Origin: Candidatus Fermentibacteraceae bacterium
GTDB lineage: Bacteria > Fermentibacterota > Fermentibacteria > Fermentibacterales > JCC-6
Length of the DNA stretch: 64,000 bases
Reading direction: 5' to 3'
Assembly (NCBI GenBank): GCA_041686025.1
Contig: JAWLEP010000003.1
Location: 17,744 to 81,743 of the forward strand
Of this stretch, positions 9,711 through 24,276 are shown one piece after another. The notes under the pieces are model-generated. The model had not been told where the DNA came from. It did no database searches and was given only the letters and a program-made list of their open reading frames with translations. Within the stretch, counting starts at the first letter, position 1. Every line of letters begins with the position of its first letter. The position numbers were made by a program, and so were the translations under genes.

Positions 9711-9751
9711 AGCGGAGCCGGCCCATCACGCCTTCGGGCTGCAGAGAAGCC

Positions 9752-11032
9752 TCAGCCCCTGCGGTCGTCCGAACGTTTCCAGAACTGCAGGTCCGACTTT
9801 ATCTCGCCGCCCAGCTCTGCCCATCTGGACCAGGTCTCGGGCCTCTCCTGCTGCAGCTGGCGTACCCGCTCGCGAATGAACAGGTAGGCAACCACCAGAA
9901 GCAGTGCGGCGGCGAATACCTCCAGCCAGATGTAGAGCTTCTTGGGCTTGCTCTTCCAGCCGGGGTGCCTGGGGGGGTCAAGCATGCGGACGTTGGACTC
10001 GGTGCGGTTCTCTTCCACCATTGCCTGCTGGTAGTTCAGCGTGAGCATGCTGTGCATCTGCTGGGACATCTCCAGGTCGCTCTTGAACTTGATGTAGTCG
10101 AACTGGATCTCGGGCACCTCCCGTATGGAGACACCGCTGTAGAACTCCTCGTACCCGGGAGGAATGCGCCCCTCCTCCAGCATGCGGATGACCTGCAGAA
10201 GGGCGTCCGCCCGCAGCCCCAGCTCTCGCGAGGCGGTGGTGGGTCCTCCCAGGGCGGTCTCCATGGTCTGCGCCTGCGCCTCGGCCCGGAGGTAGTCGCT
10301 CTTCAGCTGGGCCAGGTTCTCGACAAAGGCCTGCAGCTCGGTCTCCAGGTCCACCAGACCGTGCTGCATCTCGAAGACCCTGAGGCTCTCGGCCGCGGCC
10401 ATCCTGATGCTGTCGGTGCGGGCCAGCTGCATCCCCAGGAACCTCCTGTCCGCAGCCGCCCTGCTGGTGTAGACGTCATCCAGTGTGCTGTCCAGCACCG
10501 CTACAACCCTCTCGGATATCAGCACGGAGTACATGGGATCGCTGGTGGTCATCTCGACCTCCAGGAATCCAGCCGGGGTGATATTGGCGGAGTAGTTCTG
10601 GCGGAACATCTTGCGGGCCCAGTACATACGCAGAATATCGTCGTCGGGGTAGGCCTCGGTGAGCTCGTTGCTGTCAGCGTAGGCCGTGGTCCTGATGACG
10701 TTCTCCACCAGGCTTCTGCTCTCGAGAATCTCCAGGTAGACGTCGGACAGAGTGGTCATAAGCGGCAGCGAGAAGCCCATGCCCCCGCTGAAGTACCCGG
10801 CGAACTCCGAGATCCCCAGGCCACCTATGCTGAGGCTGGGGCTGCTCCTCTCCTCCGGTGGCATGATCACCGTGGTTACCGTGAACTGCTCCTGCAGGAG
10901 ATAGGTGATGATCACCGTGGGAACCATTACCGCAAGCAGGGTCAGTATCAGGAACCATCGGTTCTTCAGCAGCACGTAGAGGTACCACGATGGCTTCCGC
11001 TCGGGGCGGATGCCGTCTCTCTCTGCGTCGGT
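9752..11032 (-). CDS. Polysaccharide chain-length determinant protein (Wzz/GumC family, no kinase domain)
   Basis: N-terminal TM (YLYVLLKNRWFLILTLLAVMVPTVIITYLL), a long periplasmic coiled-coil region, and a C-terminal TM (YIWLEVFAAALLLVVAYLFI). Start chosen at ATG 11032, 2 nt after the Wza stop, rather than 11104. Confidence 0.7.
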   Translation of the reverse strand, partial: TDAERDGIRPERKPSWYLYVLLKNRWFLILTLLAVMVPTVIITYLLQEQFTVTTVIMPPEERSSPSLSIGGLGISEFAGYFSGGMGFSLPLMTTLSDVYLEILESRSLVENVIRTTAYADSNELTEAYPDDDILRMYWARKMFRQNYSANITPAGFLEVEMTTSDPMYSVLISERVVAVLDSTLDDVYTSRAAADRRFLGMQLARTDSIRMAAAESLRVFEMQHGLVDLETELQAFVENLAQLKSDYLRAEAQAQTMETALGGPTTASRELGLRADALLQVIRMLEEGRIPPGYEEFYSGVSIREVPEIQFDYIKFKSDLEMSQQMHSMLTLNYQQAMVEENRTESNVRMLDPPRHPGWKSKPKKLYIWLEVFAAALLLVVAYLFIRERVRQLQQERPETWSRWAELGGEIKSDLQFWKRSDDRRG

Positions 11033-11034
11033 CA

Positions 11035-12243
11035 TCAGAATATGCTCTTCCACGCTATGACGACGCTGGCCACACCGGTGAGCACCGTAAGGTAGTCCTG
11101 CCACCAGACCAGCCCCGCCCTGGGCACCCGTATCACGGAGCCGGAGGGCACGCTTTGCAGCTCGTCTATGGAATATACCTCGCCGTCAGGTGTGACTATC
11201 TCGGTATCGTCCAGGTCGGCTTCGTCATCTATGCCTCCGGCGCTGGCTATGTAGTATCCGGCGTCCATTCCCGGCACGTATCCCTGGGGGCCCGGCATGA
11301 ACACATGCCCCGACACCATGACCGTCACCGACGCTCCGGGGCATATCAGCATGTCCCCCGGCATCAGCACCGGGTCCATCGAGTCGTCGTCCATGGGGGC
11401 GGGCAGCCTCAGCTCCCGCCTGCTGCTGTCCCGCCTCATGACGTAACATCGGGAGGGATGGGCCCATGGAGAAAGGCCCCCCGCCCTCTTCACAAGCTCA
11501 CTGGCCGTCTCATCCTCCCGGTAGGACAGGAACCCCCGGGTGCTGCCCTCCCAGCTGGTGTCGGCCTGGGCCAGGGGGGCTCCCGTCTGATAGATGTAGC
11601 GCAGGGAGACAGCCCCCTCCACGCCCACCTTGGGACCGGCGTAGGGCACGTTGATCACGTCCCCGGCGCCCAGCATGGGGTTTGCGCTCCATTCGCCGGT
11701 TTCCAGGTAGGCGGCCACGTCCACGTCAAGCGAGTCGCCCCCCCGCAGCAGGTAGACGCTGTCCCATGCGCCTCCATGGGATATCCCGCCCGCCAGCTGC
11801 AGAAGGTCCGAGACCCTGTCCGCGGCGGTTGAGGGATACAGTCCGGGCTTCACCACGTTGCCCGTCACCGACACCCGGAAGGTCCGCATTCGGGCAAGCC
11901 CCACCATCGGGGTGCCGCTGCGGAACCTCGCTTCGAAAGATCGCTCCACGAGGTCCACGGCCTCCGCGAGGGTCAGCCCCTCCAGGTCCACGGCTCCCAC
12001 CAGGGGGATCACCACGTAGCCGTCCGGAGTGACGGGGAGCTCCAGCCCCCCCTGAGACATCGAGTCGGACAGCTGCGTGGGCAGGCCGCCCTCTGCGGAC
12101 AGCCACAGGACATCGCCCGGCCCCACCTCGTAGCGCTCGGGGTCCACCGGGAATGTGAGCTCAGAGTTGGGGTATTGGTCACCCGGAAACTGGCCCAGCA
12201 GTGCGCCGAGCAGAAGCGTGCCTATCAGAGCTGCATTGGCCAA
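11035..12243 (-). CDS. Polysaccharide export protein (Wza/GumB-like, SLBB domains)
   Basis: Signal peptide MANAALIGTLLLGALLG. Poly_export/SLBB-type sequence (YEVGPGDVLWLS ... GDVINVPY ... GDMLICPG ... GSVIRVP). Confidence 0.75.
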   Translation of the reverse strand: MANAALIGTLLLGALLGQFPGDQYPNSELTFPVDPERYEVGPGDVLWLSAEGGLPTQLSDSMSQGGLELPVTPDGYVVIPLVGAVDLEGLTLAEAVDLVERSFEARFRSGTPMVGLARMRTFRVSVTGNVVKPGLYPSTAADRVSDLLQLAGGISHGGAWDSVYLLRGGDSLDVDVAAYLETGEWSANPMLGAGDVINVPYAGPKVGVEGAVSLRYIYQTGAPLAQADTSWEGSTRGFLSYREDETASELVKRAGGLSPWAHPSRCYVMRRDSSRRELRLPAPMDDDSMDPVLMPGDMLICPGASVTVMVSGHVFMPGPQGYVPGMDAGYYIASAGGIDDEADLDDTEIVTPDGEVYSIDELQSVPSGSVIRVPRAGLVWWQDYLTVLTGVASVVIAWKSIF

Positions 12244-12329
12244 GCGCCGACACCTCCAGGACGGTATGTCTGGGAGAACCGATCAGGCGGGAAGCCCGGC
12301 CTCCCGCCTGCCCGGCTACCATAATCCAA

Positions 12330-13271
12330 CTAAATCAGTGATGCAACCATAAGGGCCTTGATGGTGTGCTTGCGGTTCTCCGCCTCGTCCCAGACCACCG
12401 AGCTGGGGCCCTCGATCACGTCGAAGGTCACCTCGTTGCCCTTCACCGCCGGCAGGCAATGCATGAAGAGGACATCCGGGTTGCCGGTCTGATCCAGCAT
12501 ATCGGCGTCCACCCTGTAGGGCTCCAGCAGGGCGATCCGCTCCTTCATCTGCTCCTCCTCGCCCATGGAGGCCCAGACGTCGGTGTAGATCACGTTGGCG
12601 CCCTCCACCGCGGCCTCCCTGTCTGAGGTGATGCGGATCTCGGCGCCGGAGCGGTCCGCCAGTCCCCGGACCGTCTCCACCAGCTTGCCCTCCGGGTGGA
12701 GCTCATCCGGAGCCAGCACGGTGCAGTTCATGCCCATCAGCGCCGAACCGATCATCAGGCTGTTGGCCATGTTGTTGCGGCCGTCGCCGGCGTAGACGAA
12801 GTCCAGCCCGGCCACGTCGCCCAGGTTCTCCTCGATGGTCATCAGGTCCGCCAGCACCTGGGTGGGATGGTAGAGGTCTGTGAGGCCGTTGAAGACCGGC
12901 ACACCCGAGTACTCGGCCAGCTTCTCCACCGTTGCCTGCTGGAAGCCCCGGAACATGATGCAGTCGAACATCCGGCCCAGCACCCGGGCGGTGTCCTCTA
13001 TGCTCTCCTTGGCCCCCAGCTGTATGTCGGAGCTGGACAGGAACACCGGACAGCCGCCCTCCTCGCCGAAGGCGGTCTCGAAGGCGCAGCGGGTCCGGGT
13101 GGACCGCTTCTCGAAAAGCATCGCCAGGGTCCGGCCCCGGAAGCGCTGCTGGAACTGCCCCGCCAGCCTCTCCGCCTTGAGCATGTGCGACAGGTCAAGC
13201 AGGTAGCGTACGTCCTCCGCCTTTAGGTCCAGAAGGGTGAGCAGGCTTCTTCCCCTGAAGTTCTTCGCCAT
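12330..13271 (-). CDS. argF: Ornithine carbamoyltransferase
   Basis: STRTRCAFE carbamoyl-phosphate-binding motif, HCLPA motif (FMHCLPAVKGNEVT), 313 aa. Confidence 0.9.
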   Translation of the reverse strand: MAKNFRGRSLLTLLDLKAEDVRYLLDLSHMLKAERLAGQFQQRFRGRTLAMLFEKRSTRTRCAFETAFGEEGGCPVFLSSSDIQLGAKESIEDTARVLGRMFDCIMFRGFQQATVEKLAEYSGVPVFNGLTDLYHPTQVLADLMTIEENLGDVAGLDFVYAGDGRNNMANSLMIGSALMGMNCTVLAPDELHPEGKLVETVRGLADRSGAEIRITSDREAAVEGANVIYTDVWASMGEEEQMKERIALLEPYRVDADMLDQTGNPDVLFMHCLPAVKGNEVTFDVIEGPSSVVWDEAENRKHTIKALMVASLI

Positions 13272-13405
13272 GGTGATCCTCCCTGTGCAGGATGCCGCGG
13301 AAAAGGTGGGTGCGTTTTCATCCCGGGCAAGATAGCAGGTAAGCTCGTCCTGTCAATGCAGAAGGGGCGCGGCGGATGCCGCGCCCCATTGGTTCACATT
13401 TGCGT

Positions 13406-13987
13406 CTAGAAGATGTAGTAGGCTCCGGCCAGTATGTTCTCCGGAGCATAGGTGCGGTAGCCGCTGTAGGTCTCGTCGATGTCCTGTTCGCCGCCCTCCG
13501 TGGTGGTGGTAGCGCTGTAGTAGTGGATGCCGAACTCCGTGAACAGGGCAAAGCGCTCGGCCCCCGGAATCGCGAAGTCGATCCTCATCAGCGGTGAGAT
13601 GGAGTAGGCGCTGGTCTCCGGACCGTCTACACCGTCCGTCTCGGAAGAGGTCTTGGCGTAGATGATCTGCCCGCCGAAGCTGAACTCCGTGTTGGCGGGG
13701 TCTGCAACCAGGTAGTAGCCGGAGCCGCCGATTGCCCAGGTGCTCATGTCGTACTCATCCGTGCCGGGATCTTCCTCGTACGACAGCTTGTCGTAAGCCA
13801 GAAGGCCCTCCATGCGGAATGCAGGACTGACCATGGCGCCGAAGCGGAGCATCGGCATGCCCTCTGTATAGAGCGTGGCATCGGAGACGTAGTAGGGCAC
13901 AGGGCTTTGCTTGAAGCCCAGGGAGTAGCCTCCGAAGGCGGCACCTGCCAGGGCGAGAAGCGCGACGGCTGCAAAGATCCTCATCAT
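13406..13987 (-). CDS. Outer-membrane beta-barrel protein (OmpA/OmpW-like), predicted
   Basis: Signal peptide MMRIFAAVALLALAGAAFG. Alternating amphipathic beta-strand pattern and a C-terminal aromatic (…GAYYIF). Start moved to 13987. Confidence 0.5.
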   Translation of the reverse strand: MMRIFAAVALLALAGAAFGGYSLGFKQSPVPYYVSDATLYTEGMPMLRFGAMVSPAFRMEGLLAYDKLSYEEDPGTDEYDMSTWAIGGSGYYLVADPANTEFSFGGQIIYAKTSSETDGVDGPETSAYSISPLMRIDFAIPGAERFALFTEFGIHYYSATTTTEGGEQDIDETYSGYRTYAPENILAGAYYIF

Positions 13988-14136
13988 TCCTTCCCTCCTC
14001 AAGGTTGTGAGAATGATCTCGGGGATAGAATTAACCAAAGCTCACCATGCGTCAATGGGGCTAATGGGCGATGCGTGAATAATCCGTCACAGGGAGCGGT
14101 GGCGCCTCCCGCCGATACGACGGGAGGCGATGGGGG

Positions 14137-15231
14137 CTATTCGGTAGCGGTGAAGAGCCGCAGCCCGTTGATCTCCTGGTACTCGTAGCTGAAGGTGACT
14201 CCGCTTACCGAGGGGGCCTCGGGGTTGGCCTCGACCCCCTCCACCAGGAGCTTCACGTAGTTGCCCTGGGGGGTCTGGCCGAAGATCAGGCCGTCGGTGA
14301 CGGCGGCGATGGAGTCGGAGTAGGCCGCCGGGTCTTCGGGGGCCACTGCGGAAGAGCCCGTGCCGTCGGCCATGGGGCAGGCCGTTCCCTGGCCCACCGG
14401 CGGAGCGCTTCCCGAGAACAGGGCCGCCGGCTCCAGCGCGGACGTGTGGCAGTAGACGTGGTAGTTGCCGTCGGCGTAGTCGTAGCTCAGGCTGGGCACG
14501 CAGGGGTTGAGGTACATGCCCACCGGGTAGCCGTCGGGGACGTCCTCCTCCCACAGGGTATAGGAACCCTCGCTGAGGGCGGGCATGGTGGAGGCTTCCT
14601 GCGAGCGGGCCGACTGGCCCTCGGCGTCGTTGGTCCTCACGGCGTAGAGGCCGGCGGACTGCGCCGTGTGCGTGTACTCCGTTCCCTCCACGGCCTCGGC
14701 CACCGTGTTCCAGCTGCCGGAGCTGTCGGCGTCGAACTCCACATCGTAGGACTCCGCGTCGGGGACCGCGGTCCAGCGGACCGTCACGGACGTCCCGGAG
14801 GAGGAGCCGGCGTCTACCCACACACTGTCTGGAGCGGCGGTGGATGTGTGGCTCACCGTGAGGACGCCGTCGCTGTAGTCGGACTCCTCGTAGCCGCCCT
14901 CGCGTATCACGCCGCGCACCCAGTAGTCGCCGGCGGGAAAGGTGGCGCAGTCCCAGTTGAACCCCGTCTGCTCCACACCCAGCGACTCGGCGATGAGCAC
15001 CAGGCCGCTGGTGGGATCGAGGTCGGTGTCCACGTAGATGTTGACCCACGCGTCGGCCCAGCCCTCGGTGTCCAGCGTCCACTCCACGATGTAGCTCTCG
15101 TCGGCGGTGGCCCCTCCGGCCGGGGGGGCGGTGATGGTGATGTCCAGGTCGCTGCCGGTGCCGCCGCAGGATGCAAGGAGAAGGGAGACAGCTGCAACCG
15201 CCGGGGTTGCTATGGCCGGCACGGCCCTCAC
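14137..15231 (-). CDS. Lipoprotein with fibronectin type III-like domain; paralogue of the 16117..16983 gene
   Basis: Lipobox LLLASCGG. Fn3-like block VTVRWTAVPDAESYDVEFDADSSGSWNTVAEAVEGTEYTHTAQSAGLYAVRTND aligns with IVLTWTAEEDAEEYEVYFKTTSGGNWSAVETTSNTTFTHTNATSAGYYSVRAKD in the paralogue. Shared C-terminal …YEYQEINGLRLFTATE. A GTG start at 15231 forms a GTGA overlap with the upstream stop; the alternative ATG is at 15261. Confidence 0.5.
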   Translation of the reverse strand: MRAVPAIATPAVAAVSLLLASCGGTGSDLDITITAPPAGGATADESYIVEWTLDTEGWADAWVNIYVDTDLDPTSGLVLIAESLGVEQTGFNWDCATFPAGDYWVRGVIREGGYEESDYSDGVLTVSHTSTAAPDSVWVDAGSSSGTSVTVRWTAVPDAESYDVEFDADSSGSWNTVAEAVEGTEYTHTAQSAGLYAVRTNDAEGQSARSQEASTMPALSEGSYTLWEEDVPDGYPVGMYLNPCVPSLSYDYADGNYHVYCHTSALEPAALFSGSAPPVGQGTACPMADGTGSSAVAPEDPAAYSDSIAAVTDGLIFGQTPQGNYVKLLVEGVEANPEAPSVSGVTFSYEYQEINGLRLFTATE

Positions 15232-16028
15232 AGGCCCTGCTGCCTCAGCAGCTCGTTCCACATCATGGAGAAGGCCAGCTCGGCCTTGCCCCTACAGCAG
15301 GGGTCCTCCGCCACGGCCACCAGCCCTACCCTGGACCCGTCGGGCATCATGCCTATGGCGGCGATGGACTCGCCGTCCTCCTCGTACGCGGGCACCCCGT
15401 AGGCCACCACGCCCTCCAGGTTGCGCAGCACCTCGGGGCCGCGGGGGAAGCCGGAGTGAAGAGCCCTTCTTATACCGGGGTAGTCCAGACCCTCACCCAG
15501 GATCTCCACCATGCTCAGCATGTCGTCGATGCTGGAGGTGCTGGCCTCCACCTCCGGGGCCCCCGGGAAGTGCATGCGGAAGTCCGTGTAGTCCGTGTCG
15601 TCGAGGCTTCTCTCCGTCAGCCAGCTCTCGAACCGTTCGGCCCCTATGAAGTAGTGGAGGATGATTCCCGGGTCCGCCCGGCCCTTCATGTTCTCGGCGA
15701 GCAGGTAGGAGATCGTCTGGCCGCCTCCGGGAACGTCATCCAGAGCGATCTCGCCGCGACGGAGCAGGTCCACCGCGCAGGCTGCCAGCACCAGCTGCGG
15801 GTTGCCGAACTTCACGGGCCCGGTCTCTCCTGCGGTAAGCCTCTCGCCCGTTGCCAGGTCCACCATCCCCACCGCCATCTCGGCGCCCCCGATGTTCGCC
15901 GCATCGTTGACGGTGGACTCCATGCCGGAGAGGATGTCCGAGGAAACCGCCGTATCGGGCCCCTCGTCGAATATGGACCCCTGGCCAATGAGAGCGGCCG
16001 CTGCGATTGCCAGCAAAGCGATACTCAT
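15228..16028 (-). CDS. Secreted class-A beta-lactamase-fold protein lacking the catalytic SxxK (predicted non-catalytic)
   Basis: Signal peptide MSIALLAIAAAALIG. The segment ETGPVKFGNPQLVLAACAVDLLRRGEIAL aligns with TEM [27 protein letters not shown] but has NPQL where STFK belongs. The SDN position reads AEN. C-terminal MPDGSRVGLVAV aligns with GPDGKPSRIVVIY. Confidence 0.5.
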   Translation of the reverse strand: MSIALLAIAAAALIGQGSIFDEGPDTAVSSDILSGMESTVNDAANIGGAEMAVGMVDLATGERLTAGETGPVKFGNPQLVLAACAVDLLRRGEIALDDVPGGGQTISYLLAENMKGRADPGIILHYFIGAERFESWLTERSLDDTDYTDFRMHFPGAPEVEASTSSIDDMLSMVEILGEGLDYPGIRRALHSGFPRGPEVLRNLEGVVAYGVPAYEEDGESIAAIGMMPDGSRVGLVAVAEDPCCRGKAELAFSMMWNELLRQQGL

Positions 16029-16048
16029 CGTTCTCCCCTGTTCGCATC

Positions 16049-16082
16049 GGGCCCCGCCGGCCGCTGGCGGCCGGCGGGGCCC
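16049..16082. repeat. Perfect 16-bp GC-only inverted repeat (hairpin) in the intergenic region between the lipoprotein paralogue and the beta-lactamase-fold gene
   Basis: GGGCCCCGCCGGCCGC-tg-GCGGCCGGCGGGGCCC, exact complementarity. Lies 34 nt downstream of the 16117 stop and 20 nt upstream of the 16028 start on the minus strand. No U-tract follows. Confidence 0.5.
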
Positions 16083-16116
16083 TCCTGTGCGGGGATGCTA
16101 TCCCCCCGGACTGACG

Positions 16117-16983
16117 CTAGTTGCTCTTGGTGGTGAAGAGCTGTATGCCCTCGCGGTCCTGGATCTCGTAGTGGAGGTCCACCTCGGTGCCGTTGTCGCT
16201 GCCCGTGTAGGGCGAGACATCGTCCACGAAGACCTTGGCGAAGTAGTCGCCTTCCAGCTGCAGTATGAAGATGTCGCCGCTGGCCAGGTTGGAGGTGTAG
16301 GAGCCGATGTTGCTCTCGGGGTAGCCGTAGGTGCTTCCCGGGCTCCAGAAGACCGTGGTGTTTCCACCCTGTGCCGGGCTCATGTCGCCGGAGCGGAAGA
16401 GGACCTCGGTGTCGCCCTTGCCCTCTTCGTAGGCGTAGATGTCCTGGTTGAAGTCGGCGCTGTAGGCGGATCCCGTCTCGGCGCCCTCGAATCCGAAGAA
16501 GATGCCGCTGGGCAGATCCTCGGCGGCGTAGTTGTCGTAGATGGTGTAGCCGGTGGAGATCTCGATGGGCATGGTGTTCACCGCGGAGGCGTACTCCTCG
16601 GAGTAGTTGTCGCCGTCCTTGGCGCGTACCGAGTAGTAGCCGGCGCTGGTGGCGTTGGTGTGGGTGAAGGTGGTGTTGGAAGTTGTCTCAACCGCGCTCC
16701 AGTTGCCGCCGGAGGTGGTCTTGAAGTAGACCTCGTACTCCTCGGCATCCTCCTCGGCGGTCCAGGTGAGGACGATGTCACGGCCGTCGGAGGCGTCCCA
16801 GTCGATGGACAGGCCCGTTATCTGGGGCAGCGTGCCTCCGCCGCCGCCGGGGTCGTCGCCCTCGCAGCCGACCATTAGCACGACAGCGAGTGCCGTAAGC
16901 AGAATTGCGTACTTCTTCATGAATGCTCCTCTCTTCGATGTTGGTGTCACTTCGGACACATAGCAAGATAGCTCCACCCCCAT
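16117..16983 (-). CDS. Lipoprotein with fibronectin type III-like domain; paralogue of the 14137..15231 gene
   Basis: Lipobox MKKYAILLTALAVVLMVGC. Fn3-like block and C-terminus (…HYEIQDREGIQLFTTKSN) shared with the paralogue. Confidence 0.55.
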   Translation of the reverse strand: MGVELSCYVSEVTPTSKRGAFMKKYAILLTALAVVLMVGCEGDDPGGGGGTLPQITGLSIDWDASDGRDIVLTWTAEEDAEEYEVYFKTTSGGNWSAVETTSNTTFTHTNATSAGYYSVRAKDGDNYSEEYASAVNTMPIEISTGYTIYDNYAAEDLPSGIFFGFEGAETGSAYSADFNQDIYAYEEGKGDTEVLFRSGDMSPAQGGNTTVFWSPGSTYGYPESNIGSYTSNLASGDIFILQLEGDYFAKVFVDDVSPYTGSDNGTEVDLHYEIQDREGIQLFTTKSN

Positions 16984-16995
16984 ACCCTGTCAAAC

Positions 16996-19386
16996 CTACC
17001 CGCCGGCGCCATCGGGGTTCCCCCCAAGTTCCTCCAGGGCGTGCTCGGCCGCCGAGCGGACATCCAGCTGCGGGTCCCCGGCCAGCTCCAGCAGCAGGGG
17101 AACCGCGGTGCTGTCCCCGATGGCTCCCAGGGCCGCCGCCACCCGGGTCCTCACCCGGGAGGAGGAATCCCGGGCCAGGGGCACGATGGCGGCAATGGAG
17201 GCCGGCTCACCTATCCGGCCCAGGGCCTCCACAACGGTGGCCCGCAGGCCCACCTGGAGGCTGTCGTCCAGGGCGTCCTCCAGGGCCGGCCGGCCCGAGG
17301 CCTCACCCATGCGGCCCAGCAGCCAGGCGCAGTTGCCCCGCACCCTGGCGGCCTCCGAGGCCAGCAGGCTCTCCGCCAGCGCCGGCAGGGCCAGCCGGGC
17401 ATTCTCCTTCAGCGCCGACTCCATGGCCCGCAGCTCCAGGCCGTCCCAGGCGTTCAGGCGCTCCCCGAGGATGTACGCCACCGCTTCCTCCCCCCTGCGG
17501 CCCAGCTCCCGGCGGTGGGCCAGAACCCTCTCGCGATTCTCGGCCACCGCCCACTCAGCGGCCACCTCGAACAGGGAGTCCAGCTCCAGGGAGCCGGGGT
17601 CCCCGATGGGGTCATCGGCCAGGCTGTCCGGGGGGCTGCTGCGGGGTAAGTCGGCCCCCACGCCGTAGCTGGGAAGCCTCCACAGCTCGCCGCCTCCGGG
17701 CCCCAGGAAGCGGTCGTCGTCGGCCAGGTCCAGGAAGACGGCGGCCCCTCCGAAGCCGCGGCGCCATGGTGCCTCCCCCTGCCCGCCCCCCGCTGCGGCG
17801 TAGACGTCGTCACCGCCCAGGTCTGCGAAGATGCAGGCGGAGTTGGTGAGGGCCAGGGCCTGGCCGCCGTCTGCGCAGTACCAGTCGTCGCCGCCTGCGT
17901 CCAGCAGGAAACCCGTGGAGAGGTCGTGGGCGCTGCCCTGCGCCGGTCCCCGGCGGGAGACGTAGACGTCGTCGCCGCCGCCCTCCCATAGGCAGCCGGC
18001 GGCCAGGTGTATCCCCGAACCCTGGCTGTACTGGGCGGCGGTGTAGCTGTCCTGGCCGTCCTGGTCGTAGAGCATTCCCAGGCCGTAGAAGTAGGCGGCG
18101 CCCTGTCCGAAGACCTCCGCCCGGTAGGTGTCGTTGCCGGAGCCCAGGTCGGCCAGGAGCCCCACGCCCCCGGCCACGAAGGGCCGCAGGCCCATGGCGA
18201 AGCCCTGGGACATGGCCCGGTGGTCCTCACGCAGCAGCGGCTCGTGGGGGTAGCGGAATCCCGCCAGGTAGGAGTCGTGGCCGGCCCGGTCACACAGTGT
18301 GCCCCGTCCGGCGGGGCCCCCGAAGCCCTGCCCGAAGGCCGCCACCCTGTAGGAGTCGTCACCCCCGGCGTCCAGCAGGTCGCCCCTGCCCATCATGGCC
18401 GCCCCCTGGGACATGTAGTCGGCGCGGTAGGTATCGTCGCCTTCGAGGTCGGCCAGCAGGCCCTGGCCCGCCAGGCCGCACCCCTGCGAGAGGGCTCCGG
18501 CGGTGTAGGTGTCGTCGCCGGCAAGGTCCACCAGCACTCCCAGGCCCCCGAAGCCCGAGCCCTGGGCACCGGGCAGCTCGGTCAGGTAGCGGTCGTCGCC
18601 GGCCAGGTCCACCACCACGGCCACGAACCTCCCCGCAGGTGCGGCCGCCGCGGCGCAGTGGCCGCGGTAGGTGTCGTCGCCCCCGATGTCGATGATCAGG
18701 TCGAAGCCTCCGGTGTAGGTGTTGGGTCCGGGTCCGCCGATCACCCAGCTCACGGGGCCGGCGGTGTCGAAGTCGGCCACCGCGCCCTCCACCCCGGGAG
18801 CGCGGAGCTCCGCCTCCGGCCAGCGCACCTCCCCCAGTTCAAGTGCCAGGCACGTGAACGTGTCGGGGTCCAGGGAAGGGGGGACCGGCCACCGGGACAG
18901 GAGGCCGGCCAGCGAATCGGGCTCCACCTCCGGGCCGACGGGCTCGGCCAGGCCCCAGGAGCGGTGCAGGGCCCCGGGGGAGCCCCACTCCCCAGGGGCG
19001 TCCCCGTCGGCGAAGACCACCGGCAGCAGGCAGGCCAGGGTGTCCCCGGCCCCGGCTGCGGAGTCGAAGGCGGCGGAGTAGGCCTCCGCCCGCTCCTCCA
19101 GCAGCAGCAGCAGGTCGGCCATGGGGTCGTCTCCCCCGTAGCTGGCGCTGCCGTCCGGAAGGGCCGACACCTCGCCTGAGAGGATGGCGGGAAGGGAGTG
19201 AATGTCCGTGAGGGCCTTCAGGACCGTGGAGTCCGGAAGGGCTACCCCCCGGGACCAGTGGCGGTCGAAGTTCATCTGCCCCCGGGTGATGTCCAGGGAG
19301 TCCAGGCAGACCGTCAGGGCGGAGTCCACCTCGGCCGGCAGCTGAGGGGCCGGGGCCAGGGCGGCGATCAGAAGGGCTGTGAGCAT
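16996..19386 (-). CDS. Large secreted protein: 12 tandem GDDxY beta-roll-like repeats followed by C-terminal HEAT (PBS-lyase-type) repeats
   Basis: Start set at the internal ATG at 19386 (MLTALLIAALAPAPQLPAEV, signal peptide), preceded by GGGAGGACAG. The 285 codons upstream in the track ORF run antisense to thiM and the riboswitch. Repeats of the form IIDIGGDDTYRGH, VVDLAGDDRYLTE, LVDLAGDDTYTAG, LADLEGDDTYRAD, LLDAGGDDSYRVA and so on, each followed by an xSQGxG segment. C-terminal HEAT repeats (…VRTRVAAALGAIGDSTAVPLLLELAGDPQLDVRSAAEHALEELG). Confidence 0.6.
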   Translation of the reverse strand: MLTALLIAALAPAPQLPAEVDSALTVCLDSLDITRGQMNFDRHWSRGVALPDSTVLKALTDIHSLPAILSGEVSALPDGSASYGGDDPMADLLLLLEERAEAYSAAFDSAAGAGDTLACLLPVVFADGDAPGEWGSPGALHRSWGLAEPVGPEVEPDSLAGLLSRWPVPPSLDPDTFTCLALELGEVRWPEAELRAPGVEGAVADFDTAGPVSWVIGGPGPNTYTGGFDLIIDIGGDDTYRGHCAAAAAPAGRFVAVVVDLAGDDRYLTELPGAQGSGFGGLGVLVDLAGDDTYTAGALSQGCGLAGQGLLADLEGDDTYRADYMSQGAAMMGRGDLLDAGGDDSYRVAAFGQGFGGPAGRGTLCDRAGHDSYLAGFRYPHEPLLREDHRAMSQGFAMGLRPFVAGGVGLLADLGSGNDTYRAEVFGQGAAYFYGLGMLYDQDGQDSYTAAQYSQGSGIHLAAGCLWEGGGDDVYVSRRGPAQGSAHDLSTGFLLDAGGDDWYCADGGQALALTNSACIFADLGGDDVYAAAGGGQGEAPWRRGFGGAAVFLDLADDDRFLGPGGGELWRLPSYGVGADLPRSSPPDSLADDPIGDPGSLELDSLFEVAAEWAVAENRERVLAHRRELGRRGEEAVAYILGERLNAWDGLELRAMESALKENARLALPALAESLLASEAARVRGNCAWLLGRMGEASGRPALEDALDDSLQVGLRATVVEALGRIGEPASIAAIVPLARDSSSRVRTRVAAALGAIGDSTAVPLLLELAGDPQLDVRSAAEHALEELGGNPDGAGG

Positions 19387-19495
19387 CTGTCCTCCCAAGC
19401 TGGTTGCCGGGGCTGCGCGGGCATTAGATAACGCCGGCAGATGCCGCGGGCCAGCCCGAGGTTGACCCGCCCGGGGGGGGCTGCATACCTTCGAT

Positions 19496-19584
19496 GCGGG
19501 ATTGGGGGTGGCCGGGCGGTGGCCCGACCTGAGAGCATACCCCGGGAACTTGAACCGAGTAATGTCGGCGGAAGGAAATCCCTC
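19496..19584 (+). ncRNA. TPP riboswitch (THI element) in the thiM 5' leader
   Basis: GGGGUG, GCCcgaCCUGAGA, ACCC, GAACuUGAaCCgaGUAAUgucGGCGgAAGG consensus blocks. P1 stem GGGAUU (19498-19503) pairs with AAUCCC (19577-19582). Downstream CCUCC segment can pair with the thiM SD GGGAGG. Located 47 nt upstream of the thiM ATG. Confidence 0.7.
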
Positions 19585-19630
19585 CGGGCCTCCCGGCCCG
19601 GGTTTCCTCCGCCTCTGACAGGGAGGCGAG

Positions 19631-20437
19631 ATGTCCGACCCCGTGATCGAGTACGCCGCAGACAACCTGCGCGAGCTGCGCGAGACCGGCCCCATGATCC
19701 ACCACATCACCAACAGCGTGGTGACCAACTTCACCGCCAACATCACCCTGTGCCTGGGAGCGGCCCCCGTGATGGCCCCCTGCGAGGAGGAATCGGCGGA
19801 GATGGCCGGATTCGCCTCCGCGCTGATTCTGAACATCGGGACCCTGGACCCGGCCCTGGTGCAGAGCATGCTGGCGGCCGGGCGGGCGGCCAACGACAGG
19901 GGCATTCCGGTGGTCCTGGACCCGGTGGGGGCCGGCGCCACCGCCCTGAGGACCGACTCCGCCCGCATGCTGGCCGACCAGCTGGAGATAGCCGTGGTCC
20001 GGGCCAACGCCGGCGAGGCCCTCACGCTGGCCGGGGAGTCGGGCCGGGTGCGGGGAGTGGACTCCCACGACAGTGTGGAGGGCCGCGGCGAGGCGCTCCG
20101 GGAGCTGGCCCGGGAGCTGGGCTGCGTGGTGGCGGTAACCGGCCGCGAGGACGTGGTAACCGACGGCAGCCGGGTGATCACCTGCCGCAACGGCCACTCG
20201 GTTATGGGCCGGGTGACCGGCACCGGGTGCGGCGCCACCACGGCGGTGGCCTGCTTCTGCGCCGCGGGTGAAGATGTGATGCTGTCCGCGGTGTCCGGCC
20301 TGGCCTGCTACGCGGTGGCCGGGGAGCTGGCGGGAAGGGATGCCGCCGGACCCGGCAGCTTCGTTCCCGCCTTCCTGGACCGCCTGGCCTCCCTGGACGC
20401 GAAGACGCTCCGGGAGAACGCCAGGATATCGGGATGA
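19631..20437 (+). CDS. thiM: Hydroxyethylthiazole kinase
   Basis: 268 aa with the ThiM signature IHHITNSVVTNFTANITLCLGAAPVMA. Overlaps thiE by 4 nt. Confidence 0.9.
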   Translation: MSDPVIEYAADNLRELRETGPMIHHITNSVVTNFTANITLCLGAAPVMAPCEEESAEMAGFASALILNIGTLDPALVQSMLAAGRAANDRGIPVVLDPVGAGATALRTDSARMLADQLEIAVVRANAGEALTLAGESGRVRGVDSHDSVEGRGEALRELARELGCVVAVTGREDVVTDGSRVITCRNGHSVMGRVTGTGCGATTAVACFCAAGEDVMLSAVSGLACYAVAGELAGRDAAGPGSFVPAFLDRLASLDAKTLRENARISG

Positions 20438-21081
20438 GGACCGCCGACCTGGCCGTATACCTGGTCACCGACCCCGGGATGGGCCTGAAGCGGGGACTTG
20501 CCGAGACGGTGCGCCTGTCCCTGGAGGCCGGGGTCCGCACGGTGCAGCTGCGGGACAAGGAAGCCTCCACCCGAAAGCTGCTGGACGACGCATCGACGCT
20601 TCTGGCGCTGTGCCGGAAGCACGGGGCCACGTTTCTGGTGAACGACCGGGTGGATGTGGCCATGGCGGCGGGGGCCGACGGCGTGCACCTGGGCCAGGAC
20701 GACATGCCGGCGGACGCCGCCAGGAGGCTCCTGGGCCGCGATGCAGTGATCGGGGTATCGGTGCGGACGGAGGAGGAGGCCCGGCGGGCGGCGGAGGACG
20801 GGGCCGACTACATGGCCGCCAACCTGGTCTACCCCACCGCCACCAAGACCGACCTCCCCGACCCTCTGGGCCCCGAGGGGATCCGGGAGCTGCGGTCCGC
20901 CTGCGGCCTGCCCCTGGTGGCCATAGGCGGCATAGACGCCGGCAACGCAGCGGAGGTGATAGGGGCCGGGGCCGACGGCCTGGCGGTGGTCTCGGCCATC
21001 ATGGCGGCGGAGGAGCCGGCATCCGCTGCGGCCCGCCTGCTGGCTGCCGCCCGAAAAGCCTTGGCCGGCAGGGATTCTTGA
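20434..21081 (+). CDS. thiE: Thiamine-phosphate synthase
   Basis: 215-aa TIM barrel with YLVTD, GADGVHLGQDD and IGGI motifs. Confidence 0.9.
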   Translation: MRTADLAVYLVTDPGMGLKRGLAETVRLSLEAGVRTVQLRDKEASTRKLLDDASTLLALCRKHGATFLVNDRVDVAMAAGADGVHLGQDDMPADAARRLLGRDAVIGVSVRTEEEARRAAEDGADYMAANLVYPTATKTDLPDPLGPEGIRELRSACGLPLVAIGGIDAGNAAEVIGAGADGLAVVSAIMAAEEPASAAARLLAAARKALAGRDS

Positions 21082-21156
21082 CAGGGCCCGCACAGGGAAT
21101 ACCTTTCAGGGAACAGGCCGGCGAGCTGGTCGCCCGGCCGCCAACCATGAGGAGGG

Positions 21157-21597
21157 ATGGTTACGATGAGAGAGATGATGATCTGTATGGTGCTGGCGGC
21201 GTCCGCCATGGCCTTCGGCGGGCTGGACACCCCCGACGTCCCCGAGACCCCCGAGGCCGACCTTTCCCAGATAGAGATCCCGGGAATGGAGATACTGGAC
21301 GGGATCCAGGTGGAGCTGGACGAGCTGATCGCCTCCACCGACTCACTGCGGACCCTGATACCCCAGCTCTCCGTGCTGGACGAGGCCTCCGCCGAGCTTG
21401 CGGAGCTGCGCGACACCGACCCCGAGCTGGCCGAGCTGCAGGCGGAGATCGACGCCCTCCGCGACGAGCTGGAGGTGGCCAGGACCGACCTGGAGACCAG
21501 GACTGAGGCCATTACCTCCAGGCTCGACGCCATAAACGAGTCGGTCACCACCTTCACCGAGGGACTTCCCGGACAGGGAAGCAGCGAGACCCGCTAA
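21157..21597 (+). CDS. Hypothetical small secreted acidic coiled-coil protein
   Basis: Signal peptide MREMMICMVLAASAMAFG followed by an acidic heptad-like sequence (AELAELRDTDPELAELQAEIDALRDELEVARTDLE). No recognisable family. Confidence 0.4.
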   Translation: MVTMREMMICMVLAASAMAFGGLDTPDVPETPEADLSQIEIPGMEILDGIQVELDELIASTDSLRTLIPQLSVLDEASAELAELRDTDPELAELQAEIDALRDELEVARTDLETRTEAITSRLDAINESVTTFTEGLPGQGSSETR

Positions 21598-21601
21598 ACC
21601 C

Positions 21602-22546
21602 CTATTCGAAGGGGCTCCGGCGGCGGAAGTCCGGCAGGCAGGACTCCGGGGAGTCCATGCCCTGGACCCAGCCCACCCGGAGCCCCTCCTCCTCCAGAAC
21701 CTCCCGCGCCCTTGCATACTCCGAGGGCCGGATCCTCCTGGACAGAAGCGGAAACTCCCCCGCCCTGTGCAGGGGGTTGTACTGCGACATCAGGCTGACC
21801 CCCACCCCGGGCGAGAGCTCCCGGGCTATGAACCGAAGCCACTGCTCCGTCCCCGACAGGCCTCCCGGCAGGACCAGCAGCCTCACCAGCAGGCCGGACT
21901 CCGCTACGCCGTCGGGCCCGACCCGCAGGGGCCCCGCCTGCCTGAACATCTCCCGCAGGGCTTTGCGGGCGGCCCCCGGGTAGCCGGGGGCGCCGGAGTA
22001 GCGGACGGCGTGCTCCTCCTCCCAGTACCGCGCGTCGGGCAGGTATATCTCGAAGATCCCCTCCAGCAGCTCCAGCACCTCCACCCTGTCGTAGCCGGAG
22101 GAGTTGTAGATCAGGGGGAGGCCGAATCCCTCCTCCGCCGCCAGGGCCAGGGAGTCCAGTATCCAGGGGAGGTAGTGGGTGGGGGTTACGAAGCCCGCAG
22201 TGGGGCATCCGGCGTCCCGGAAGCGCAGCAGCGTCCGGGCCAGCTCCCGGGCCTCGGTGGGGAACCGCCTGGGGGTCTGGCTGATGTCGTGGTTCTGGCA
22301 GTAGACGCAGGAGAGGCTGCAGTGGGCCAGGAAGACGTTGCCCACGCCCCGGCGGCCGCCCAGCACCGGCTCCTCCCCGTGGTGGACGCAGGTGGAGGCC
22401 ACCTCCAGCTCCCCCCCGGCGCCGCAGCGGCCCCGCTGGCCCCGGTCCCTGCGGGCCCCGCACCGGTGGGGGCAGAGCCGGCAGGGGGAGGCCAGCTCCC
22501 TCAGCCGGCCCGCCCGCTCCCGCAGCAGAGCCGGGTCCGCCATCAT
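21602..22546 (-). CDS. Radical SAM protein, PflX/YjjW-like (pyruvate formate-lyase activating enzyme homologue)
   Basis: N-terminal CRLCPHRCGARRDRGQRGRCG cysteine cluster followed by radical SAM CSLSCVYCQN (CxxxCxxC). The start overlaps the stop of the ABC gene at 22543. Confidence 0.8.
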   Translation of the reverse strand: MMADPALLRERAGRLRELASPCRLCPHRCGARRDRGQRGRCGAGGELEVASTCVHHGEEPVLGGRRGVGNVFLAHCSLSCVYCQNHDISQTPRRFPTEARELARTLLRFRDAGCPTAGFVTPTHYLPWILDSLALAAEEGFGLPLIYNSSGYDRVEVLELLEGIFEIYLPDARYWEEEHAVRYSGAPGYPGAARKALREMFRQAGPLRVGPDGVAESGLLVRLLVLPGGLSGTEQWLRFIARELSPGVGVSLMSQYNPLHRAGEFPLLSRRIRPSEYARAREVLEEEGLRVGWVQGMDSPESCLPDFRRRSPFE

Positions 22547-24276
22547 GCCCGCTCCGTGCCGGCGTCGGACATCTCCGTGGAGATCACCCAGCGGTAGAGC
22601 CTGCTCTCCCGCCGCAGCCGGTCATGGGTGCCGGCGGCCGCCAGCCGGCCCCGGTGCAGAAGCACCACCCGGTCGGCGTGCTTCACGGTGGCCTCCCGGT
22701 GGGTGACCACGAAGGTGATGGCGCCCGAGGCCGCCGGGCCGAGACGCTTCCAGAGAGCCTCCTCCCGCTCGGCGTCCAGGGCGGCGGTGCAGTCGTCCAG
22801 AAGCAGCAGCGACGGCCCCCCGGCCAGGGCCCGGGCGATAGCCACGCGCTGCCGCTGGCCGCCGCTCACCCCGGTGCCGCCCTGGCCCAGCAGACGGCGG
22901 GCGCCCATGTGCAGCTCCCCCGCGGGGAGGCCGGCGGCCTCCAGGGCCGCCGCCACCCGCTCCTGGCCGATGGGCCTTCCCAGGCGGACGTTCTCCGCCA
23001 CCGTCTCGCTGAACAGCACCGACTCCTGGGGCACGTACCCCACCCTGGCGGAGAGGGCGTCCTCGGGGATGCTCTGAAGCGGGACGCCGTTGAGCAGCAC
23101 CTCCCCCTCCCCGGCCGGCAGAAGGCCGGCCAGCATCTTCAGCAGGGTGGTCTTTCCGCTCCCCACCTCCCCCACCACTGCCACCACCGCCGGGGCCTCC
23201 ACCCGCAGGTCGATGCCCTCCAGCCCGGGGCCCTCGGGGTAGCGGAATCCGGCTCCCCGGAGCTCCACGGTGCGCAGGGGGCCGGGATCCTCCCCCGAGA
23301 GCCTTCGCACCCTGCCGGGGAACTCCAGTATCTCGTTCTCCCTGTCTATGGAGGCGAAGGCCTGCCGGGAGGTGACGAAGAGGTTGGGGATGTCCATCAT
23401 CGGCGCCAGGAGCAGGTCCAGGTAGACGTAGAAGGCGTAGAAGTCGCCCAGGCCTATACGCTGCCGGATCACCAGTATTCCCCCCACCAGGACCACCAGG
23501 ACCTTCCCGAAGTGGCCGATGAAGTTGTAGAGGCTGTGCACCAGCATCATCAGCCGGGCGATGTCCATCTCTATGTCAACCCGGCGGTCCAGCAGGCGGC
23601 GCAGCCGGGACTTCTGGCCATCCTCGGCCCCGTAGGCCTTCACGATGGAGATGCCGGCGAAGGTGCTGTCCAGCAGGTCGTTGGTGTGGCTGGTGGCCCG
23701 GCGGCTCTCCTCCACCTTCTTGCCCAGCCGGTGCTCCACGCGGTAGAAGATGTAGATCATCAGGGGCAGGGGGGCCACCGCCAGCAGCGTCAGCTCCCAG
23801 CTTATCAGCACCATCACCACCAGGCAGAACAGCAGCCGGGCGGAGGACTCCAGGGCCCGGAAAACGGCCGAGCAGCTGAACCAGCCGATCCGGGGGTACT
23901 CCACGATGTCGTCGGTGAGCCTGGTGGTGAGATCGCCGGGACGGAACCTCCCCCAGAAGCGGTAGTCCTTCTCCTTGAGGCTGTCGAAGACGTCGTCGCG
24001 GACGTCCAGGCCGATCTTGCTGTTCAGCCAGGCCCTGGCCCCGGGGTAGAGGCCGGCCACGAAGCGTCCCAGGGCCAGGGCCCCCAGTATCAGCATCACC
24101 TGTCGCAGCCTGTCGCCTCCCTCCATGACCTGCTCCAGGTTGTCCAGGACGTAGCGGAAGACCAGGGGAAAGCCCAGGGCCACCCCGCTGGAGACCACGG
24201 TGAGCACCAGGAGGACGGAGATGTGGGCCCGGTGTCCGCGCCAGTAGGAGGCTATCCAGCGCATGTGCCTAAGCAT
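22543..24276 (-). CDS. ABC transporter permease/ATP-binding protein (type I exporter half-transporter)
   Basis: Six-TM domain followed by an NBD with Walker A GEVGSGKTTL, ABC signature VSGGQRQRVAIARAL and Walker B LLLDDCTAALD. Confidence 0.9.
   Translation of the reverse strand: MLRHMRWIASYWRGHRAHISVLLVLTVVSSGVALGFPLVFRYVLDNLEQVMEGGDRLRQVMLILGALALGRFVAGLYPGARAWLNSKIGLDVRDDVFDSLKEKDYRFWGRFRPGDLTTRLTDDIVEYPRIGWFSCSAVFRALESSARLLFCLVVMVLISWELTLLAVAPLPLMIYIFYRVEHRLGKKVEESRRATSHTNDLLDSTFAGISIVKAYGAEDGQKSRLRRLLDRRVDIEMDIARLMMLVHSLYNFIGHFGKVLVVLVGGILVIRQRIGLGDFYAFYVYLDLLLAPMMDIPNLFVTSRQAFASIDRENEILEFPGRVRRLSGEDPGPLRTVELRGAGFRYPEGPGLEGIDLRVEAPAVVAVVGEVGSGKTTLLKMLAGLLPAGEGEVLLNGVPLQSIPEDALSARVGYVPQESVLFSETVAENVRLGRPIGQERVAAALEAAGLPAGELHMGARRLLGQGGTGVSGGQRQRVAIARALAGGPSLLLLDDCTAALDAEREEALWKRLGPAASGAITFVVTHREATVKHADRVVLLHRGRLAAAGTHDRLRRESRLYRWVISTEMSDAGTERA

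Follow-up and report, generated by a model that had tools for sequence, protein, structure and literature searches.

What do five neighboring genes for exported proteins, one of which has the fold of a β-lactamase without its chemistry, contribute to the envelope of an uncultured bacterium? We address this question for a locus on contig JAWLEP010000003.1 of Candidatus Fermentibacteraceae bacterium (assembly GCA_041686025.1), within a stretch of 64,000 nucleotides (positions 17,744 to 81,743 of the contig) that we call the window and to which all coordinates below refer. Its G+C content is ~68%, and contigs identical to it are present in two Logan assemblies. Fermentibacteria (formerly Hyd24-12) are uncultured and common in anaerobic digesters and sediments; to our knowledge, their cell surface is almost entirely undescribed. 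In the window, five co-directional genes on the minus strand fill positions 13406–19386, and an independent gene caller returned the same set on the same contig. The original prediction, a reading of the sequence alone, had described this co-directional set correctly but not its spacing: instead of gaps of 12–98 nt, the best gene models, which combine orthologue N-termini, ribosome-binding sites and the independent gene call, leave 75, 88, −4 and 149 nt between consecutive genes from g5 to g1. The genes are as follows.

16996–19386, minus strand: g5, 796 amino acids, an open reading frame whose start has GGGAGG 6 nt upstream
16117–16920, minus strand: g4 (lipoB), 267 amino acids, a lipoprotein with lipobox Cys19 followed by EGDDP
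15228–16028, minus strand: g3 (bla, the pseudo-lactamase), 266 amino acids, an exported, non-catalytic protein of the class A β-lactamase/PBP-A fold
14137–15231, minus strand: g2 (lipoA), 364 amino acids, a lipoprotein
13406–13987, minus strand: g1 (bb, the barrel), 193 amino acids, with a signal peptide, a probable small outer-membrane β-barrel

The most likely start of g4 is the ATG at 16920 (protein MKKY, with GAGAGGAG upstream and orthologues that begin alike) rather than 16983; g2 starts at the GTG at 15231, with a 4-nt overlap with the g3 stop, and g1 at the ATG at 13987. All five products look exported, as had been proposed, when export signals are assessed by eye and by pattern inspection. 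g1 has a classic signal peptide (ending in ALAGAAFG/G), g2 and g4 have lipoboxes (LLLAS-C and LMVG-C, respectively; pattern [LVI][ASTG][GA]-Cys) that recur in nearly all listed members of their families, and g3 and g5 have short, hydrophobic N-termini that lack a basic n-region and correspond to more typical signal peptides in their orthologues.

What kind of protein is g3? On its own, its sequence matches nothing in Pfam, NCBIfam or the Protein Data Bank (PDB), the NCBI annotation of a 100% identical entry is 'hypothetical protein', and a profile of three g3 sequences gave no match to TEM-1. Relatives are few: 1.84 billion representative proteins, searched exhaustively with a profile, yielded just 17 representative clusters. 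The profile of this wider family matches class A β-lactamases in the PDB (6v4w_A at E = 3e-8, and dozens more below 1e-3), and the Pfam model PF13354 (Beta-lactamase2) is weakly matched by 15 of 22 relatives (best E = 4.9e-7), though not by g3 of the window; precomputed matches to the same model exist for 12 of 29 relatives. With a 42-sequence alignment, AlphaFold2 produced a g3 model with a predicted local distance difference test score (pLDDT) of 88.3 and a predicted template modeling (TM) score of 0.85, whereas a 3-sequence alignment reached a pLDDT of only 36. This model displays the two-domain, α/β plus all-α fold of penicillin-recognizing enzymes, and in a Foldseek search with it, over 1000 PDB chains reached E ≤ 1e-3. 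Class A β-lactamases take all the top places, aligned over the full length with TM scores of 0.61–0.70, and the nearest structures are 6v4w, LRA-5 (8eo5), 4hes and PBP-A (2j7v), at 10–18% identity.

Upon close examination of the positions that carry out catalysis in these enzymes, we found them replaced. The equivalent of Ser70 is Asn76, and that of Lys73 is Gln78 (HMMER alignment to 6v4w) or Leu79 (hhalign alignment to TEM-1); the Ser70/Lys73 column is not conserved across the g3 family. In the hhalign alignment, which has modest confidence (E = 4.8e-4, probability 32%) and uses a TEM-1 sequence entered by hand, S130 falls opposite a gap, D131 is replaced by Arg, N132 by Ala, E166 by Arg151 and K234-S-G by Val-Pro-Ala. 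The only invariant or near-invariant residues of the family are W136, G61, T145, D169, L174, Y210, G211 and G235, and its alignment offers no candidate for a conserved nucleophile or polar base. Because profile and fold match, four motifs are lost and no nucleophile is conserved, the assignment of g3 as a catalytically dead β-lactamase fold, with the catalytic serine and lysine replaced as originally claimed, is well supported. g3 thus has its fold in common with class A β-lactamases, PBP-A and DD-peptidases, and differs from them in Ser70-x-x-Lys73, Ser130-Asp-Asn, Glu166 and Lys234-Thr/Ser-Gly. Unlike the class A enzymes, moreover, g3 and its relatives are restricted to a single candidate phylum, and their genes always adjoin lipoprotein genes. 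They form a new, non-catalytic branch of a well-known fold. A regulatory protein with the β-lactamase fold, BlaB of Streptomyces cacaoi (2wuq), resembles g3 in fold only; organism, cytoplasmic regulatory context and sequence differ, and we know of no lipoprotein partner for BlaB.

Just before its C-terminal helix, g3 carries the sequence DPCCRGK (residues 243–249), in which two vicinal cysteines precede a lysine. This Cys-Cys-Lys element (consensus LCCxxKADLA) is kept in many, though not all, pseudo-lactamases, and the cysteines might be joined in a vicinal disulfide or contribute, close to the former active-site groove, to a site for a metal or ligand. One relative, P0136 (315 amino acids, on a 1-kb Joint Genome Institute contig), has HAMP_2 (PF18947) joined with the last two-thirds of a pseudo-lactamase and might be a genuine sensor fusion or a chimera of the assembly.

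The lipoproteins encoded on either side of g3 are paralogs, with 31% identity over 232 amino acids (BLASTP, E = 4e-18). Their common part consists of a fibronectin type III (Fn3)-like domain and a C-terminal domain of ~150 amino acids, which in g4 occupy residues ~30–118 and ~119–267, respectively. The lipoprotein family profile matches 3mpc_A, an Fn3-like protein, at E = 2.8e-6; PF00041 is weakly matched by 3 of 15 family members, g2 and g4 of the window themselves being sub-threshold, and a 475-amino-acid lipoB paralog passes the Pfam fn3 model outright (28.2 bits against a cut-off of 25). These matches agree with the earlier proposal of a duplicated module of Fn3 and C-terminal domain. For the C-terminal domain, we found no PDB match and only stray or sub-threshold Pfam matches (FimA, E = 0.022, in one member); its invariant residues are aromatic or glycine, plus one lysine and one glutamine, and it is novel and unclassified. 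g2 has an additional N-terminal Ig-like domain (residues ~22–135), which in other genomes stands free as a lipoprotein of 124–155 amino acids. Its Ig-like signal is faint (Kre9_KNH, E of at least 0.038, in 4 of 9 members), and a PDB match was not found. Weak, sub-threshold matches to SusE and DUF4992 were also seen. In Bacteroidota, a lipoprotein export signal of the form C-X-K-(D/E)2-X directly follows the lipid-anchor cysteine (PMC5080379). The lipoB orthologues read C-[AET]-G-D-[DN]-P at this place, so that the acidic pair at +4 and +5 agrees with the signal and the Lys/Gln at +3 is absent. Five Sabulitectum-like loci (L112–L114, L119 and L120) hold an extra lipoB paralog of 475–507 amino acids, with three Fn3-like domains and the same C-terminal domain, at an unrelated locus that adjoins ABC-2 transporter genes; neither a pseudo-lactamase nor g5 lies nearby, and the neighbors there are unrelated to the pseudo-lactamase.

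How constant is the company that these genes keep? A scan for g5, with one genome per species, yielded 80 loci, and a metagenome scan for the g4 family added 37 more; neighboring genes were classified by iterative profile searches of all six-frame open reading frames. The g1–g4 families occur only in Fermentibacteria. There, in every locus with enough downstream DNA, g5 is directly followed by a g4-type lipoprotein gene and then by at least one g3-type gene, and the expected co-occurrence of lipoprotein and β-lactamase-fold genes thus extends to every sufficiently long locus. Gene content from lipoB to argF is highly variable. The minimal form is g5-lipoB-bla; fuller forms add a g2-type or second g4-type lipoprotein gene, a free N-domain lipoprotein gene, usually a barrel gene, and a second, often shorter, pseudo-lactamase gene. 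The order lipoB-bla-lipoA-barrel of the window is common only to its closest relatives, L006 and L123. The idea that paralogous lipoproteins bracket the pseudo-lactamase is accordingly right for these three loci and wrong as a general pattern: the recurring element, seen in many shuffled arrangements in ~60 loci, is a lipoprotein gene and then a pseudo-lactamase gene. The flanks are fixed in nearly all Fermentibacteria loci, with ABC-ABC-radical SAM-thiE-thiM upstream and argF(-wza-wzz) downstream. This order of ~12 genes (window ~9750–24300; L003–L039 and L086–L121) is kept even at ~50% g5 identity, a rigidity of synteny that is unusual for a whole phylum.

Comparison of the window with the closest other genome, L006, reveals that part of the locus has been exchanged.

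15170–16554, minus strand: variable cassette of 1.4 kb, comprising the g4 C-terminal domain, the entire g3 and the first ~20 codons of g2 (signal peptide)

By blastn, the two DNAs are ~82% identical over 21499–16555 and again over 15169–12001; between them, from 16554 to 15170, nothing aligns except one 60-nt patch. The break points are sharp, one right after the conserved TMP motif at the boundary of the g4 Fn3 and C-terminal domains and the other at the g2 start. On the protein level, the flanks are highly similar (g5 84%, g2 81%, g1 83% and ArgF 92% identity), the N-terminal part of g4 is 69% identical, its C-terminal domain 34% and g3 27%. L123 carries the window allele, colinear at 88%, and its comparison with L006 breaks at the same points; a comparable break inside lipoB separates L011 from L052. 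The cassette is therefore real. Over 18 loci, the median identity to the window is 76% for ArgF, 60% for ThiM and ThiE, 49% for g5, 48% for the barrel, 42% for lipoB, 29% for lipoA and 28% for the pseudo-lactamase, and in the minimal clade the pair of lipoprotein and pseudo-lactamase is as conserved as g5. Joint exchange of the g4 C-terminal domain and g3 fits parts that match each other, or parts under the same outside selection.

Are the five genes expressed as one unit? The locus contains the following signals.

16964–16993, minus strand: promoter-like site TTGACA-N17-TATCTTG, between the g5 stop and the g4 start
16049–16082, minus strand: hairpin in the g4–g3 gap, a perfect 16-bp GC stem without a T-run (orthologues have a T-run)
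14103–14129, minus strand: hairpin just 3′ of the g2 stop, 12 bp, minimum free energy −24.1 kcal/mol, z −4.6
13364–13387, minus strand: hairpin after the g1 stop, a 10-bp GC stem followed by UUCUGCAUU
13328–13356, minus strand: another promoter-like site of this type, 5′ of argF, at the downstream boundary of the cluster

The pattern TTGAC-N15-19-TAnnTTG has two matches in the 64-kb window against 0.05 expected. Between g5 and lipoB, 19 of 34 orthologous loci have the strict pattern, and a looser form, TTGA-N16-20-TAnn[TA]T, is found in most of the remaining 15. The motif combines a σ70-type −35 element (TTGACA) with a −10 element, TAnnTTG, that resembles the Bacteroidota consensus, and it may be the form that strong promoters take in Fermentibacteria. 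The g4–g3 gap as a whole has a minimum free energy of −53.7 kcal/mol (z −5.1), and the hairpin downstream of g1 is the probable end of the unit. We scored as terminator-like any GC-rich hairpin with a T-run within 90 nt of a stop codon. Such elements follow lipoB in 49 of 62 loci and the barrel gene in 15 of 20; they are found after the pseudo-lactamase in 12 of 55 loci, after g5 in 7 of 85, after the N-domain gene in 1 of 12 and after lipoA in 1 of 11. In the minimal clade, ~30 nt lie between the lipoB hairpin and the ribosome-binding site of the pseudo-lactamase gene, which leaves no room for a promoter, and the downstream genes there therefore depend on read-through.

The conserved promoter-like site between g5 and g4 and the frequent terminator-like hairpin after lipoB weaken the original prediction that the five genes read as a single unit. 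The best reading is a complex unit, built around one probably abundant lipoprotein, that would run from g5, without a terminator, to a promoter, g4, an attenuating hairpin, the overlapping g3 and g2, g1 and a terminator. Such an arrangement is usual where a highly abundant subunit precedes partners made in lesser amounts. In fimbrial and pilin operons, a major-subunit gene such as fimA or papA is likewise followed by an attenuating hairpin. The likeness would lie in one gene with its own promoter and stem-loop and downstream genes that depend on read-through; the difference is that the products here are unrelated to pilins, ushers and chaperones.

Two further RNA elements lie near these genes. 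The predicted lipoB 5′ leader contains a conserved hairpin, GGAAGCGTGCGCTTCC, in nine loci of the minimal clade (L005, L021, L029, L032–L034, L037, L100 and L109), and other clades have a different hairpin (…CGAAGGGCAAGACTCTTCG…) at the same position; the leader hairpin could affect mRNA stability or translation. A thiamine pyrophosphate (TPP) riboswitch lies upstream of thiM at 19494–19593 on the plus strand, in the divergent gap with g5. It scores 52.8 bits (E = 1.9e-8), just below the Rfam gathering score of 54.3, and its position leaves only ~107 nt (19387–19493) for a g5 promoter.

The last gene of the cluster, g1, scores 23.2 bits against PF13505 (OMP_b-brl), below the cut-off of 28.7. 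This model is matched by 4 of 10 g1 relatives, whose best PDB match is NspA, an 8-stranded barrel (E = 0.048), and the family ends in an invariant YYxF at the C-terminus. Together, these features make it likely that g1 is a small outer-membrane barrel. The presence of a g1-type barrel gene largely tracks that of wza-wzz downstream of argF, with minimal-clade loci lacking both and with L008 and L074 as exceptions. This association probably reflects clade structure; a link to polysaccharide export is possible.

The first gene, g5, encodes a solenoid-plus-HEAT protein, in which an N-terminal region precedes two repeat regions.

17677–18714, minus strand: g5 repeat region, residues ~225–570, ~13 units of roughly hhhDhxGDDxY…QGxG
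17017–17439, minus strand: g5 HEAT-repeat region, residues ~650–790, with Pfam HEAT models above their cut-offs

GDDxY-type motifs lie at positions 235, 262, 289, 341, 368, 470, 498, 524 and 555 of the protein, with a period of 26–27 amino acids. The repeat region has no Pfam or PDB sequence match and contains many invariant Gly, Asp, Gln and His residues (and, in the family, also invariant Arg); we regard this domain as unclassified. We considered an RTX β-roll and rejected it, as the unit is 26–27 amino acids long with GDDxY rather than the nonapeptide GGxGxDxUx, and no RTX model in Pfam matched. The HEAT assignment is clear: g5 exceeds the cut-offs of HEAT_2 (PF13646; 71.6 bits against 27.7), HEAT_PBS (PF03130; 44.5 against 20.9), HEAT (PF02985; 41.4 against 23.5) and likewise HEAT_EZ, and its profile matches alphaRep and other HEAT proteins in the PDB. 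The earlier description of a lead gene of about 800 amino acids with GDDxY repeats and HEAT repeats therefore stands, while its 'β-roll' label does not fit units of 27 amino acids. A search returned 2709 g5 homologues, with identities of ~50% within Fermentibacteria and ~40% in WOR-3 and Latescibacteria; no viral relatives of g5 or lipoB were found.

The g5 frame also gave rise to a misleading gene model. An open reading frame of 1081 amino acids at 16996–20241 on the minus strand was discarded as a high-GC artifact: the real start lies at 19386, and the frame stays open for 285 codons upstream of it, antisense across thiM. Long spurious frames of this kind are typical of DNA with high GC and could lead gene callers astray. 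In L066, L099 and L103 (contigs of Ca. Sabulitectum silens and a related metagenome contig), g5 is split into several open reading frames. In L066 and L103 thiM is split as well, and damage to two neighboring genes makes frameshift errors in the assembly likelier than true pseudogenes.

What, then, might the locus do? We tentatively favor a Fermentibacteria-specific envelope locus in which a lipoprotein displays a variable domain, g3 is its non-catalytic partner and g1 an anchor. According to this proposal, g4 would be made in large amounts as an outer-membrane-anchored protein, and its Fn3 domain would act as a stalk that holds out the fast-evolving C-terminal domain. g3, g2 and g1 would be made in smaller amounts, by read-through. 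No longer an enzyme, g3 would be a putative binding subunit for the lipoprotein C-terminal domain; alternatively, the old active-site groove could hold a small ligand. The g1 barrel would help to anchor the assembly in the outer membrane, and the g4 C-terminal domain and g3 would be swapped together between strains as one cassette. g5 is a candidate participant: the usual absence of a terminator between g5 and g4 argues for a role, and its occurrence alone in other phyla argues against one. A more specific version, which we consider improbable, holds that the g4 C-terminal domain and g3 are a cognate, strain-specific envelope pair on an abundant Fn3-stalk lipoprotein, swapped as a cassette, with the conserved solenoid-HEAT protein g5 as a periplasmic assembly or docking partner. 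If true, it would amount to a new variable surface-recognition or decoy module in which the β-lactamase fold is reused purely for binding, much as BLIP-type proteins bind β-lactamases.

Several observations weigh against the proposal of a displayed lipoprotein with a g3 partner. The lipoprotein C-terminal domain and the pseudo-lactamase show no co-variation beyond phylogeny in a mirror-tree analysis of the 17 loci that encode a single lipoprotein together with a single pseudo-lactamase (partial Mantel r 0.12, p ~0.10); a correlation over all close pairs was discarded, being confounded by clade and paralogy. The evidence for the cassette consists of one clean replacement and the L011/L052 break, and it could be a plain recombination tract; being contiguous, such a tract takes both genes whether or not their products interact. 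Because the hairpin after g4 of the window lacks a T-run, termination at this point is uncertain, and high expression of g4 would follow from promoter- and terminator-like signals alone. The acidic residues after the g4 cysteine match the Bacteroidota surface-export signal only in part, and if g4 were surface-exposed and g3 periplasmic, the two could not meet. Adjacency is itself weak evidence of a functional link, as unrelated flanking genes are equally syntenic, and it is weakest for g5. Outside the phylum, 43 loci (from WOR-3, Cloacimonadota, Gemmatimonadota, Edwardsbacteria, Stahlbacteria and others) hold homologues of g5 (890–1090 amino acids) without the g1–g4 families alongside. In these 43 loci, g5 has no constant partner: an M6 peptidase, a metallophosphoesterase with CBM9 and a VIT1 protein recur upstream, and no other family upstream or downstream appears in more than 7.

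Could the pseudo-lactamase instead serve the cell wall? In this scenario, the dead fold of penicillin-binding proteins (PBPs) and β-lactamases would bind the D-Ala-D-Ala ends of peptidoglycan stems in the periplasm and act, together with the lipoproteins, as a tether or as a regulator of wall enzymes. The closest folds do include PBP-A, DD-carboxypeptidases and DD-endopeptidases besides β-lactamases, and an exported protein, lipoproteins and a small barrel would suit the role. There are also parallels: the outer-membrane lipoproteins LpoA/B and NlpI control PBPs or hydrolases, and the dead enzymes EnvC and NlpD act as regulators. In E. coli, LpoA and LpoB pair with PBP1A and PBP1B, and NlpI with PBP4 and PBP7. 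The analogy would extend to an outer-membrane lipoprotein with a PBP-fold envelope partner, yet there is no kinship in sequence or domains, and the E. coli partners are active and not encoded beside their lipoproteins. The residues that hold the substrate (SxxK, SDN and KTG) are all lost in g3, a housekeeping wall binder would not be expected to be 73% divergent where its flanks are 81–92% identical, and the families are absent from neighboring phyla with the same type of envelope. We regard a role at peptidoglycan as unlikely.

Equally doubtful, in our view, is the explanation that the genes have no joint function and are unrelated exported proteins in a frozen gene order, the interval from g5 to argF being a hot spot of envelope-gene turnover. 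It would account for the conserved flank order in nearly all loci alongside the very variable content between lipoB and argF, for g5 standing alone in the 43 loci of other phyla, for the lipoB paralog at an unrelated locus without g3 or g5, and for the missing co-variation signal in the minimal clade. It does not readily explain why lipoB and a pseudo-lactamase, both confined to one phylum, are found in every sufficiently long locus, why the minimal-clade pseudo-lactamase has no room for a promoter of its own, or why g3 and g2 overlap.

The lipoproteins also invite comparison with Sus-like nutrient capture, in which Fn3 lipoproteins and the dead enzyme would bind a substrate at the surface and pass it to an outer-membrane channel. 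Kinship of the phylum with Bacteroidota, the weak SusE and DUF4992 matches and the acidic motif after the lipid-anchor cysteine point in this direction, and SusE/SusF share with g4 an N-terminal lipid anchor, an Ig/Fn3-like stalk and a distal β-rich domain. However, the C-terminal domain here has no detectable kinship to carbohydrate-binding modules, no SusC or SusD neighbor is present, and the cluster and its conserved flanks contain no TonB-dependent transporter, SusD-like protein, glycoside hydrolase or regulator. A barrel of ~175 amino acids is, moreover, too small for a SusC-type pore, and we consider this explanation remote.

Even less plausible is a pair resembling polymorphic toxins and their immunity proteins, with the g4 C-terminal domain (after the TMP motif) as effector and g3 as cognate protector. 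Polymorphic toxins typically combine an N-terminal part that is kept with a C-terminal domain that varies and a next gene that is replaced along with it; the sharp switch within g4 and the co-replaced gene downstream follow this layout. Yet all of the C-terminal domains are homologues of one another, no recognizable catalytic motif emerges from their invariant residues, no toxin family and no defense or toxin model matched, no secretion system lies alongside the genes, and across half the phylum the pair is conserved to the same degree as the genes around it. That g3 is still an enzyme, working through non-canonical residues, is just as implausible, for although its fold is intact at high model confidence and the Cys-Cys-Lys of DPCCRGK is conserved in part of the family, no polar nucleophile or base is conserved family-wide and the Cys-Cys is missing in many members.

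The claim that this combination of genes matches no described system is borne out. PADLOC returned generic HEAT matches for g5 and nothing for g1–g4, curated Pfam and NCBIfam models gave nothing above threshold except the HEAT models for g5, and PDB matches were likewise generic or sub-threshold. Literature searches on Fermentibacteria/Hyd24-12 and on class A β-lactamase pseudoenzymes, and a term search of the Sabulitectum genome paper, did not reveal the cluster. The system is undescribed; to call it a new kind of system would exceed the evidence.

For the biology of Fermentibacteria, the locus may encode a major component of the envelope, a lipoprotein whose own promoter- and terminator-like elements are kept phylum-wide. 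The replaced cassette points to envelope variation at the strain level, which could matter for phage–host or cell–cell interactions. The g5 family is large and strongly conserved over several candidate phyla related to the Fibrobacteres–Chlorobi–Bacteroidetes (FCB) group, and its repeat domain deserves a structure. The g3 family, finally, adds to the few cases in which this fold occurs without its chemistry, and resistance-gene screens that use fold or weak profile matches should not score g3-type proteins as β-lactamases.

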